Of a stretch of 64,000 nucleotides of DNA, positions 56,136 to 59,465 are shown in pieces (the first letter of the stretch is position 1; each line of letters opens with the position of its first letter). The stretch comes from Abditibacterium sp. GTDB taxonomy: Bacteria > Armatimonadota > Abditibacteriia > Abditibacteriales > Abditibacteriaceae. The notes below the pieces were generated by a model. It was not told the DNA's origin, did not search any database, and was given only the letters and a program-made list of their open reading frames with translations. The position numbers were made by a program, and so were the translations under genes. Location: assembly GCA_965199495.1 (NCBI GenBank), contig CBDASK010000003.1:4448001-4512000 (forward strand), read 5' to 3'.

Positions 56136-57272
56136 ATGTCCGCTCCCAAACCTCTGCTCGTCCTGTTAGTTCCCGCATTTTTGGCCGTGCCCTGCGCGCT
56201 TGTCACCTCGGCCAGCGCACAGGAAAAAACCGCGCCCGCCACTTCTACCGATGCCTCGCTGACCAAAACGGCGAGTCCCGCCACGACAATCGCGCCGCGC
56301 CAGAGTTTGCCCGCGTTTACTTCGGTCAAATTGAGCGTTGCGCCGGTTTTGGCCACGCCAACGACGGCGCGACAAACCCTATTGACGCCGCCTGTGGCTG
56401 TGAAAACGAGCGCGATTAAAGAAGCGGCGTTGCCCGCGCCAGCGCTCAAAGTGCCGGTGGCTGCATGGAGCGCCGCCGAACGCGCGCAATTGGTCACATC
56501 CACGTTAGCTTCGGCAACGCCGCCAATCGTGAAGCAGCGCCGCGCTTTTGCCGCCGCCGTTTCGCTTTCGACTTCGCCAGACACGCCCGTAAAGCTGGCC
56601 CCACAAGTTTCGGTCGCGCCCGAAACAACAGTTGCGGCTCCCGTCAGCGTTTCGGTTATGGCGCCTTTGACGGCGCCCGTGACAGCCCCAGTGGCTGCTG
56701 TGGCGCGGCCCTCGATTTTGGCGTCGCGTGAAGCCCGTGCGCGCGAAGTCGCGCTCGCTCGCATGGACGCCCAACTCGCCGGAGCCGAAGGCCGTCTGGA
56801 TCGCGCGCAATCAAGATTGACCGAGGGCCAGCGCCAACTGGGCAACGTCAGCAACCTGCTGCAAAGCGCGATGCTTTCTTCGGGCGGTAGCGGTCTGCAT
56901 CCGTTCGTGCGCGTAGCGCAGCGTTATCTGGGCACGCCCTATGTTTGGGGCGGCGAGTCGGCGCGCGGCTTCGATTGTTCGGGTTTCATCATGCGCGTGA
57001 TGCGCGATCTGGGCTATAAAGCCCTGCCGCACTCCGCCGCCGAGCAATTCAACTATGGCCAGCCGATTTCCAAAGGCTTGCTCCAGCCCGGCGACATCGT
57101 GTTTTTCGCCAACACCTATAAACCCGGCATCTCGCACGTCGGCATTTATCTGGGCGGCGGACGCTTTATTCACGCCGCCAACTCGCAGGTCGGCACCATC
57201 GAATCGAACCTCAACTCGCCCAAATGGGTCGCGCATTACGCGGGCGCGCGCCGCTTGATGAAAATGAGTTAA
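56136..57272 (+). CDS. NlpC/P60 (C40) cell-wall peptidase
   Basis: YLGTPYVWGG...FDCSGF, PGDIVFF, HVGIY, FIHA. Confidence 0.92.
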   Translation: MSAPKPLLVLLVPAFLAVPCALVTSASAQEKTAPATSTDASLTKTASPATTIAPRQSLPAFTSVKLSVAPVLATPTTARQTLLTPPVAVKTSAIKEAALPAPALKVPVAAWSAAERAQLVTSTLASATPPIVKQRRAFAAAVSLSTSPDTPVKLAPQVSVAPETTVAAPVSVSVMAPLTAPVTAPVAAVARPSILASREARAREVALARMDAQLAGAEGRLDRAQSRLTEGQRQLGNVSNLLQSAMLSSGGSGLHPFVRVAQRYLGTPYVWGGESARGFDCSGFIMRVMRDLGYKALPHSAAEQFNYGQPISKGLLQPGDIVFFANTYKPGISHVGIYLGGGRFIHAANSQVGTIESNLNSPKWVAHYAGARRLMKMS

Positions 57273-57308: not shown

Positions 57309-57337
57309 TTGACTGTTTTTCTCGTCTTCTGTATCCT
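57309..57337 (+). promoter_or_regulatory. Sigma70-type promoter for the tRNA pair
   Basis: TTGACT-N17-TATCCT. Confidence 0.65.
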
Positions 57338-57351
57338 GTTTCCCGTTCCAT

Positions 57352-57424
57352 GCGGAAGTAGCTCAGTTGGTAGAGCATCAGCTTCCCAAGCTGAGGGTCG
57401 CGAGTTCGAGCCTCGTCTTCCGCT
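57352..57424 (+). tRNA. tRNA-Gly(CCC), CCA not encoded
   Basis: Canonical cloverleaf: GCGGAAG/CTTCCGC acceptor stem, anticodon loop TT-CCC-AA, TTCG in the T-loop. Confidence 0.95.
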
Positions 57425-57470
57425 TTTTGATAGGAATTGAAGCCCAAATTTCGATTTTTATCGCTCCCCT

Positions 57471-57541
57471 GCGGGAGTAGCTCAGTGTTAGAGCGCCCTT
57501 CGTCCAGAAGGGAAGCATTGGTTCGATTCCCGTCTCCCGCT
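57471..57541 (+). tRNA. Non-canonical tRNA-Gly(TCC)-like gene
   Basis: Perfect acceptor, D and anticodon stems; anticodon loop CG-TCC-AG; D-loop AGTGTTA lacks GG; T-stem ATTGG/CCCGT is mismatched. Confidence 0.8.
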
Positions 57542-57552
57542 TTTTAGAAATC

Positions 57553-57581
57553 AGCGCGCCGAAAATATCGGCGCGCTTTTT
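57553..57581 (+). terminator. Terminator of the tRNA pair
   Basis: AGCGCGCCGA-AAATA-TCGGCGCGCT-TTTT. Confidence 0.8.
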
Positions 57582-57641
57582 CTTCGTCTGGCTGCTCGAA
57601 AACCGGGAGAGATTTTCGCTTTTAAGCGTCGTTAGTTTCCA

Positions 57642-58070
57642 ATGCCCGCGCTCTCGCACGACCGTGACGCGATTTTCACGCGTCCGGTTGCCGTCCAACT
57701 AACTTACAACGACTTCCCCGATTTCTACGCGCTACTGGGCGCCGAACATGACGCGAGCGCCCTTGACATCGAGACCGCCATCGTCGAGCGCGGCGCCGAT
57801 CTGCTGGCCGCCAATTTTTCGCGGCGCGGCGGCAGCGAATTCATTCGGCTCATCGAACGCTACCTCAACGATTTTCGCCCAATTCTGCTCAACGCCGACA
57901 ACCGTCGCCGCTACGACGAACAGTTGGCGCGCCATCGCCATCGCGACGCCAACGCGTTGCCCTACTCCGATTGGCGCGCGCGTTTGCCCGCGCCCCAACC
58001 AGCCACGCCGCCCGCGCGTGGCTGGCGCGCGCGGCTGAGACGCGCATTTTTGGAAAGCGATTATCTTTAA
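57642..58070 (+). CDS. J-domain-like protein lacking HPD
   Basis: DFYALLG...AS..DIE.A and ILLNADNRRRYD resemble the first and last J-domain helices; start uncertain. Confidence 0.5.
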   Translation: MPALSHDRDAIFTRPVAVQLTYNDFPDFYALLGAEHDASALDIETAIVERGADLLAANFSRRGGSEFIRLIERYLNDFRPILLNADNRRRYDEQLARHRHRDANALPYSDWRARLPAPQPATPPARGWRARLRRAFLESDYL

Positions 58071-58187: not shown

Positions 58188-59465
58188 ATGGCCAATCCGC
58201 TCCGTGACTTACTTTTCGGCACCGTTGCCGCGCCCAAAAAACCTCTGGCCGATTCCATCGTGCCGCGCCGCTCGTTCGCCGATGTCATCCTGCCCGCCTC
58301 GACGCATCAAGCGCTCGAATGGGCTTTGATTCAAATTAAAAAAGCCGATCTGATTTTCGAGCAATGGGGGCTGGGCGAGCGCCATTCGAGCGGCAAAGGT
58401 CTGGCGTTCAACTTCGCCGGGCCGCCCGGCACCGGCAAAACGATTTGCGCCGAAGCCATCGCGCACGAACTGGGCAAAGCGTTGTTTATCGTGCGCTACG
58501 CCGAAATGGAAAGTTTGTGGGCGGGCGAAACCGGCAAAAACGTGGCGGCGGTTTTTCGCGCCGCAACCGAATCGGACGCGGTTTTGTTTTTCGATGAAGC
58601 CGACGCCATCGCCTCGCGGCGTTTTGGCAGCGTAACGCAAGGTTATCAGCGCGAATCGAACGCGGTCGTCAACGTTTTGCTCAAAGAATTGGAAGATTTC
58701 GCGGGCGTGGTGATTTTCGCCACCAACATCGCCAGCAACTTCGACCCGGCGTTCGAGCGGCGCATCCGCACGCACATTCTGTTCGATATGCCCGATGCTC
58801 CGGCGCGCGAGAAAATCTGGAAAGTGCAATTGCACGCCGGAAAAACGCCTTTGGCCGACGATGTCGATTTCAAAAAGTTGGGCGAGGACTACGCCGTGGC
58901 TGGTGGCGACATCAAGAACGCCGTTTTGAAAGCCGCGCAGATGGCCTCAGCCGAACCCGGCCCCGACGCCGCAAAGAAGATTCATCAACGCCATTTCATC
59001 GCGGGCATCGAAGAAGTGAAAGCCTCCAAACGCGTGATGGAACAGTCCATTATTGACGGCGACGGCAGCGCGCGCCCGCAGATGGATCAAAACGTGATGG
59101 CCGGGATTTCGGCGGCGTTTGAACAACTGGCGCAAAACGATCAAAACATGGGCAACGATTTGCGCGCGACGATGGAGCGCAGCGAAATCATGGAGCAACA
59201 GTTGGCCTCGATTCCCGAAATCTTGAATCGGTTCGAGGAAGCGAACACCGCTTCGCGCGTGGCTTTGAAAGACGAATTGAGCGCGCGTGTTGATGGAATC
59301 GGCAAAGATGTCAACGAGAAATTCACCGACATCAAAGCCGATTTGGCGCGCGGCGACGAACGCGGAATGTCGGCGGCGGGTCAACTCAAAGTCGCTTTAA
59401 CAGTCGGAGTTTTAGGGTTAGTCGCGGGCTTTGGCGGGCTAATCGTGGCGCTAATGTCGAGGTAA
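58188..59465 (+). CDS. AAA+ ATPase with C-terminal coiled coil and TM anchor
   Basis: GPPGTGKT, FFDEAD, ATN, FDPAFERRI; hydrophobic C-terminus. Confidence 0.85.
   Translation: MANPLRDLLFGTVAAPKKPLADSIVPRRSFADVILPASTHQALEWALIQIKKADLIFEQWGLGERHSSGKGLAFNFAGPPGTGKTICAEAIAHELGKALFIVRYAEMESLWAGETGKNVAAVFRAATESDAVLFFDEADAIASRRFGSVTQGYQRESNAVVNVLLKELEDFAGVVIFATNIASNFDPAFERRIRTHILFDMPDAPAREKIWKVQLHAGKTPLADDVDFKKLGEDYAVAGGDIKNAVLKAAQMASAEPGPDAAKKIHQRHFIAGIEEVKASKRVMEQSIIDGDGSARPQMDQNVMAGISAAFEQLAQNDQNMGNDLRATMERSEIMEQQLASIPEILNRFEEANTASRVALKDELSARVDGIGKDVNEKFTDIKADLARGDERGMSAAGQLKVALTVGVLGLVAGFGGLIVALMSR

Follow-up and report, generated by a model that had tools for sequence, protein, structure and literature searches.

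Non-proteinogenic glycine tRNAs

Staphylococci contain non-proteinogenic (NP) glycine tRNAs, designated NP1-NP3 in Staphylococcus aureus and tRNA-Gly Ia/Ib in S. epidermidis, which act as donors for the transferases FmhB/FemX, FemA and FemB, and it is in staphylococci that this donor arrangement has so far been described. In the cited sections of a study whose tree covered selected Gram-positive bacteria, the NP lineage is present only in staphylococci, its T-loops have UGC or UGU in place of UUC, and its T-stems contain A49-U65, U50-A64 and A51-U63 (PMC7826273). Positions 18-19 are given as UU or CU in the relevant part of a second study (PMC4574755), and the hallmarks listed in an excerpt of a third include the loss of G18-G19 and an additional C-G38 pair, by which the anticodon loop is made shorter (PMC13443448).

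A second tRNA-Gly(UCC) gene in Abditibacterium

The window (the whole stretch of 64,000 nucleotides analysed, from Abditibacterium genome G000) contains a tRNA-Gly(CCC) gene and, starting 46 nt behind it, an extra tRNA-Gly(UCC) gene. The locus was compared with those of two sister genomes (G011 and G004) and a metagenome contig (L144), and is organized as follows:

56136..57272, + strand: NlpC/P60 peptidase gene (PF00877), the ancestral neighbour of tRNA-Gly(CCC)
57309..57337, + strand: candidate sigma-70-type promoter, putatively serving both tRNA genes, with a 17-nt spacer; same hexamers in G011
57352..57424, + strand: canonical tRNA-Gly(CCC) (ARAGORN; Rfam RF00005, 70.2 bits), identical in G011 and G004
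57425..57470, + strand: unconserved inter-tRNA spacer of 46 nt (69, 109 and 29 nt in G011, G004 and L144)
57471..57541, + strand: extra tRNA-Gly(UCC), probably of non-proteinogenic type, 71 nt (ARAGORN tRNA-Gly(tcc); Rfam RF00005, 47.0 bits; parsed structure)
57553..57585, + strand: intrinsic terminator-like hairpin of 10 bp with a T tail (hairpin proper 57553-57577), nearly the same in G011
57642..58070, + strand: ORF of 142 aa matching nothing in Pfam or NCBIfam, conserved in position at each of the four extra-tRNA loci
58188..59465, + strand: AAA ATPase gene, likewise syntenic in all four loci

A preliminary description of this DNA had proposed that the two tRNA genes share a promoter and terminator, and candidates for both are present and are kept in G011. 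The sigma-70-like promoter lies upstream of tRNA-Gly(CCC) (one found, against a mean of 0.2 in shuffled sequence), and the hairpin, with one found against a shuffle mean of 1.0, is on its own no better than chance. The adjacent NlpC/P60 peptidase gene had also been pointed out, but the adjacency carries no weight. The same gene is found upstream of tRNA-Gly(CCC) in genomes G001, G006, G007 and G008, all of which lack the extra tRNA, so the neighbour is uninformative and has no support as a functional partner.

The extra gene is redundant for decoding. A canonical tRNA-Gly(UCC) is encoded elsewhere in the genome (C3:4190290-4190360, minus strand, between Pro and Arg tRNAs), which rules out the extra copy as the only reader of GGA, and canonical Gly-GCC and Gly-CCC genes are present as well. 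The glycyl-tRNA synthetase (GlyRS) of G000 is of the dimeric, alpha2 type, and a search of the genome for GlyQ gave no match.

Structure of the extra tRNA

In a standard tRNA the elbow is held by pairing of the D-loop with the T-loop, and U33 is the U-turn base of the anticodon loop. The extra tRNA-Gly(UCC) scores well above the RF00005 cut-off of 29 bits, with one non-standard T-stem pair flagged. Its acceptor (7/7), D (4/4) and anticodon (5/5) stems are all Watson-Crick, and the glycine identity elements G1-C72, C2-G71, G3-C70, C35, C36 and U73 are all in place; CCA is absent from the gene. The D-loop contains a single G (G18, U19), the GG dinucleotide being gone, and the anticodon loop reads C32 G33 U34 C35 C36 A37 G38. 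The T-stem consists of A49-U65, U50.G64, a U51xC63 mismatch, G52-C62 and G53-C61, and closes a T-loop of the normal UUCGA type. In the minimum free energy (MFE) fold C32-G38 is paired and the T-stem is largely open. Parsing thus recovers every anatomical feature listed in the preliminary description.

Canonical bacterial tRNA-Gly(UCC) shares with this tRNA the 71-nt frame, the short variable loop, the acceptor stem and the identity elements, whereas the window allele is without U33, G19, A/C38 and the 51-63 pair; the canonical elongator features (U33, G18-G19 and a paired 51-63) are all missing. It differs at 16 sites from the nearest canonical Gly-UCC of the family. Among 15 distinct canonical family sequences that were parsed, 14 have G51-C63 and one has C51-G63, and all have GG. 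A base other than U at position 33 occurs in just three of the 66 default ARAGORN calls in the genome, the other two being a Stop(tta) call and an apparently spurious Phe(aaa).

The resemblance to the staphylococcal NP tRNAs is substantial. Both are extra UCC copies alongside a canonical one that keep glycine identity, lose the D-loop GG, have an extra C-G38 pair (C32/G38, in all four copies of the Abditibacterium tRNA) and a weak 49-51/63-65 region with A49-U65, and occur in hosts with a Fem transferase and a dimeric GlyRS. Unlike the staphylococcal tRNAs, the window allele has a pyrimidine mismatch rather than A-U at 51x63 and U.G at 50-64, keeps G18 where they have UU or CU, and has G33, and the staphylococcal UGC T-loop is found in the G004/L144 allele only, the window allele having UUC. 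The setting differs too: another phylum, a single copy, one Fem gene, and presence in 3 of 27 family genomes. The window allele differs at 25 and 27 positions from two NP-type tRNAs of contig L131 (labelled staphylococcal-type from their match to published features), more than from the canonical family tRNAs, and does not group with such tRNAs on a poorly resolved tRNA tree. By its T-loop, its bases at 18-19, its 50-64 and 51-63 pairs and its lineage, the extra tRNA is outside the staphylococcal lineage, and its function is probably like that of NP1-NP3, by analogy with the features in common.

Conservation and divergence among relatives

A one-mismatch Gly-UCC pattern applied to 27 Abditibacteriaceae-level genomes shows G000, G011 and G004 to be the only ones with a second Gly-UCC, and a C32/G38-type pattern recovers the same three among 401 genomes of the phylum. 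These three form one clade on the FemX tree (support 100/100). The fourth copy is that of contig L144, and all four sit behind tRNA-Gly(CCC) and ahead of the same two ORFs.

The copies in G004 and L144 are identical (0/71 sites), while 36 of 139 four-fold degenerate sites in the two downstream genes differ (binomial p 6e-10) and the spacers are not alignable. The G000 and G011 copies differ at 3/71 sites, compared with 35/155 four-fold sites (binomial p 2e-5). Between G000 and G004, 24 of the 71 tRNA positions differ and yet 19 of the 21 stem pairs hold. Six compensatory pair changes are seen, comprising Watson-Crick swaps at 11-24, 27-43, 29-41, 30-40 and 49-65 and the tertiary pair 15-48, and random placement of the changes gives such pair retention with p 2e-4 to 3e-3. 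Syntenic copies in sister genomes, low tRNA divergence and compensatory pair changes exclude random decay or an assembly error; to judge from these comparisons, the extra tRNA is under purifying selection. The preliminary description had named random decay in related genomes and sole decoding of GGA as outcomes that would count against its proposal, and neither holds.

The same data bear on the idea of an uncharged regulatory or decoy RNA, or a scar of integration at tRNA-Gly. The gene did arise beside another tRNA-Gly and in one clade only; however, it is full length, its stems covary, all glycine identity elements are present in both alleles, and no integrase is found among the neighbours scanned, which leaves this explanation extremely unlikely.

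A more complex relationship is seen between the two alleles, G000/G011 (the window allele) and G004/L144. All four copies have C32/G38, and what both alleles keep are the features expected to work against translation: no GG, G38 and, facing C63, a pyrimidine (U, C, C and C). G33 is specific to the G000/G011 allele and is not a lineage-wide character. The G004/L144 allele has A18 G19 in the D-loop and a UGC T-loop. At the elbow, G18/U55 is retained and G19 lost in the window allele, and the G004/L144 allele keeps G19/C56 and has A18/G55, so that, from standard structure, each allele is predicted to break one elbow contact, by U19 in the window allele and by A18/G55 in its sister. Divergence between the alleles (24/71) exceeds that of the four-fold sites of G000 and G004 (36/137), and simple descent under constraint therefore does not explain it; the excess suggests that the tRNA was replaced, converted or changed in a burst.

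One could also propose that the lineage was once a functional donor and that the G000/G011 allele, through drift or through partial conversion by the neighbouring gene back to a more normal tRNA, now serves little purpose. Its G33, normal T-loop and open T-stem in the MFE fold would fit such a history, as would the three changes between G000 and G011 (two of them in the T-stem) where tRNA-Gly(CCC) has none, and the bases at 7, 9, 11, 15, 24 and 66, which are the same as in the neighbouring tRNA-Gly(CCC). Against this, three changes in 71 sites is far below the neutral rate, G33 is common to G000 and G011, the 50-64 pair and the 51x63 mismatch survive the changes, and a base other than U at position 33 recurs in other tRNAs of the same type. 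We consider a fading allele quite unlikely.

Predicted affinity for EF-Tu

Additive T-stem energies for EF-Tu binding were taken from the available Table 2 of PMC3239215. Calculated values for the 15 canonical family Gly-UCC tRNAs range from -10.7 to -11.2 kcal/mol. For the pair of staphylococcal-type tRNAs on L131 the value is -9.5 kcal/mol, equal to the figure published in the portion of PMC3239215 consulted. The window tRNA is given no total because U-C and C-C pairs are absent from the table; its first two T-stem pairs sum to -0.1, compared with -0.7 in the canonical copy. In the part of the same source cited here, every measured replacement of G51-C63 weakens EF-Tu binding, by 0.2 to 1.1 (PMC3239215).

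These positions matter for a reading in which the extra tRNA, like the genome's other spare tRNAs, is an accessory decoder or a nuclease-resistant reserve for GGA/GGG codons. Several unusual spare tRNAs are indeed present, phage-borne Gly-UCC with G38 exist, and an altered anticodon loop could in principle evade anticodon nucleases. The conserved changes, however, fall on precisely those parts that translation needs, namely the pair contacted by EF-Tu, the elbow and the U-turn base, and glycine tRNAs need tight-binding T-stems according to the sections available of PMC7826273. A role in decoding is very unlikely. The extra tRNA is real, selected and probably non-translating.

Candidate transferases

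The preliminary description had called for a search for Fem-type transferases, and one is present. The FemX gene of G000 (C3:4620342-4621433, 363 aa; PF02388, E 9e-55) is unlinked to the extra tRNA; its best match in the PDB is the S. aureus lipid II:glycine glycyltransferase 6snr (E 2e-44), with Weissella FemX behind (2e-28), and it scores below the NCBIfam cut-off for alanine-adding FemX. PF02388 is found in 26 of 27 family genomes. The FemX tree (27 rows, with G023 left out for an in-frame stop, G019 as a fragment and G018 for want of a match) indicates vertical inheritance and no grouping with Streptomyces proteins. Since FemX is vertical and occurs in 26/27 genomes compared with 3/27 for the tRNA, no co-gain links the two, and a co-acquired Fem gene is ruled out. 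The 23 FemX-bearing relatives without the extra tRNA tell against an essential role for it.

FemX of G000, G004 and G011 keeps family-ancestral motifs that are also present in genera without the extra tRNA. We note that ten other members of the genus share two substitutions in conserved FemX motifs, not seen in those three; a change of substrate preference in that sister clade is possible. Separately, G011 carries two further FemAB-like GNAT genes about 2 kb apart (G011:C4:33012-35887), which are not seen in G000 or G004. The host MurE carries a DNPR motif, which we take to be typical of DAP.

Might a non-translating glycine donor serve some other acceptor, through another GNAT/Fem-fold enzyme, an aminoacyl-phosphatidylglycerol synthase or a Mom-type DNA-modifying enzyme? 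The features of the tRNA indicate a role off the ribosome without identifying an acceptor. Besides FemX, G000 has an MprF-type gene, two further PF13480 proteins and a weak PF13480 match on a protein that reads as a probable Leu/Phe transferase, and phage Mu Mom uses Gly-tRNA in the cited part of PMC13219725. However, MprF, which had also been put forward for a search, was found in G000 but in only 12 of the 27 family genomes, and no copy was detected in G004, a genome 92% complete; it is therefore unlikely to be the sole partner, and we reject it as an obligatory one. The strongest of the other PF13480 proteins also occurs in G009 and G012, both without the extra tRNA, CDPS searches gave no match in G000, G004 or G011, and no clade-specific acceptor enzyme was seen among the candidates tested, a set outside which Mom lies. 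Another acceptor is thus unlikely. Among the tRNA-dependent wall or lipid transferases tested, FemX is, as judged by homology, the only one both common to all three genomes and with a glycine-specific best match. Its pairing with the extra tRNA is a proposed one.

Counterparts in Streptomycetaceae, other Actinomycetes and phages

An exact-match scan of GTDB returned nine matches, too strict a measure to count the tRNA type, one of them in Streptomyces sp. CA-111067, which also holds a canonical Gly-UCC. The C32/G38 pattern is present in 121 of 251 Streptomycetaceae genomes. On reading the individual sequences, at least 116/251 lack GG and have a UGC T-loop, and five have C33 with GG kept; 116 is a floor, because both of two rechecked non-matching genomes carry a close variant. 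tRNA-Gly(GCC) is close by in all ten loci examined, at which default ARAGORN called three correctly, called one as Trp and missed six. Examples are L135:1501-1572 and L150-L159.

The Streptomycetaceae type shares with the window allele the absent D-loop GG, C32/G38, a pyrimidine/purine anticodon stem and canonical tRNA-Gly neighbours, and shares the UGC T-loop with G004. It differs in its length of 72 nt, A51-U63, a bulged T-stem, retention of U33 and its position adjoining tRNA-Gly(GCC). Six variants differ from the window allele at 16-19 positions and a seventh at 23, so that the allele is equidistant from the Streptomycetaceae type (16-19) and the canonical family (16), and the relevant forks of the tRNA tree have support of about 40. 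The Abditibacterium tRNA may have arisen by convergence or by transfer from Actinobacteria, which a tree of this resolution does not tell apart. The preliminary proposal of a convergently evolved, non-proteinogenic glycine donor gains from redundancy, selection and the presence of Fem, while its word 'convergent' is not separable from transfer.

Streptomyces walls have a glycine bridge. The parts of PMC4052509 cited here describe FemX and VanK of the Streptomyces family as users of aminoacyl-tRNA. Among Actinomycetes, 15 of 201 genomes are pattern-positive (eight of the Streptomyces type and seven of a second type), and FemAB is present in 15/15 of these compared with 103/201 overall (E 1e-18; the count includes the unpublished genomes G661, G669, G678 and G689, all pattern-negative); we attach no p value, because the positives represent about two lineages and not 15 independent cases. 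The second type, exemplified by G803:C4:790517-790589 and occurring in six other genomes of 3.6-4.2 Mb, combines C32/G38 and U51-A63 with an unusual T-loop; FemAB is present in each of the seven genomes, and both of the two checked have a canonical Gly-UCC.

Five other genomes with a C32/G38 Gly-UCC, taken from the exact-match scan, were searched for FemAB. FemAB was not found in the Arcobacter genome or the Actinomycetota bin, a Pedosphaera bin gave weak matches, and the Alistipes copy sits among phage tail-like genes. Such a Gly-UCC, with a calculated T-stem energy of -8.3, is seen in an Alistipes-associated prophage with those tail-like genes (L137:1501-1572) and on three viral contigs (L132-L134). 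A phage origin for the Abditibacterium tRNA was considered and rejected: the window allele gives full-length matches of only 73-74% (E 0.01-0.04) and the G004 allele none.

A plausible role for the extra tRNA

The most likely scenario, to which we assign a probability of roughly 0.6 given the anatomy, redundancy and selection of the tRNA, the presence of FemX and GlyRS, and the recurrence of such tRNAs alongside FemAB in Actinomycetes, is that the extra tRNA-Gly(UCC) is a ribosome-avoiding glycine donor for FemX. It would be co-transcribed with tRNA-Gly(CCC), processed and supplied with CCA, after which the alpha2-type GlyRS would charge it by way of the intact acceptor pairs, U73 and C35/C36. 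Weakened 49-51/63-65 pairs, which set the affinity for EF-Tu, the loss of one elbow pair, and an anticodon loop closed down by C32-G38 and G33 would, by published rules, let the charged tRNA escape both EF-Tu and the ribosome. The Gly-tRNA would then supply FemX, predicted from homology to add glycine to the peptidoglycan precursor, and the tRNA would be an optional booster gained by one clade rather than an obligatory part of the pathway. Counted against this donor reading are the UUC T-loop and G18 kept by the window allele, its mismatch in place of A51-U63, the excess divergence between the two alleles, a FemX far more widespread in the family than the tRNA, and the C32/G38 Gly-UCC found in genomes with weak or no FemAB matches and among phage tail-like genes.

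A broader reading, on which we are evenly divided, is that glycine tRNAs dedicated to a non-translating role recur among bacteria with Fem transferases rather than being peculiar to staphylococci, and are found in the Abditibacterium clade, in most Streptomycetaceae (where gene finders often miss them) and in the second actinobacterial lineage, and all feeding peptidoglycan side-chain synthesis. The Abditibacterium example would consist of two alleles, each disrupting the elbow in a way complementary to the other and both carrying a pyrimidine-51xC63 mismatch directed against EF-Tu. If so, splitting of the glycyl-tRNA pool between ribosome and wall would be a general strategy, with counterparts in Armatimonadota and Streptomycetaceae, and pyrimidine-51xC63 would be a new natural candidate EF-Tu antideterminant. 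How Fem enzymes obtain aminoacyl-tRNA outside staphylococci also becomes testable in Streptomyces. On this reading the walls of Armatimonadota should carry a glycine side chain, of which we found no report in the open-access literature. That literature likewise yielded no description of such tRNAs in Abditibacterium/Armatimonadota or Streptomyces; the Streptomyces type may already be in print, subscription literature lying outside the search.

Other tRNAs and minor observations

Also in the window, on the minus strand between 49336 and 51738, is a tandem array encoding three paralogues of 242-288 aa that look secreted and resemble one another at both termini. A Pfam scan of one of them gave no match.

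Among the various other unusual tRNAs of G000, we note genes for tRNA-Leu with a short variable arm (type I) at C3:1551844-1552003 and C3:3473050-3473125 (minus strand), with anticodons UAA, CAA and UAG. Short-arm tRNA-Leu(UAG) is also present in relatives L023, L026, L038, L041 and L042, and Streptomyces coelicolor has a type I tRNA-Leu(CAA) according to the accessible part of PMC6614811. Further spare, divergent tRNAs called by default ARAGORN lie at C3:4061305-4061537, 4263025-4263096, 4284143-4284216 and 4309188-4309380, and include a Glu/Trp/Ala cluster, an extra Trp, a UUA 'stop' anticodon call with a base other than U at 33, an extra Tyr, and Ser.

Two further genomes have irregular tRNA-Gly(CCC) genes. 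In G015 a degenerate second copy (L059:2721-2793) lies 1.2 kb behind the intact one and resembles an integration scar. In L047/L060 (G041:C68:21117-21190) the gene has an extra base in the anticodon arm and is called with a four-base CCCC anticodon, possibly reflecting a frameshift suppressor or an assembly error.
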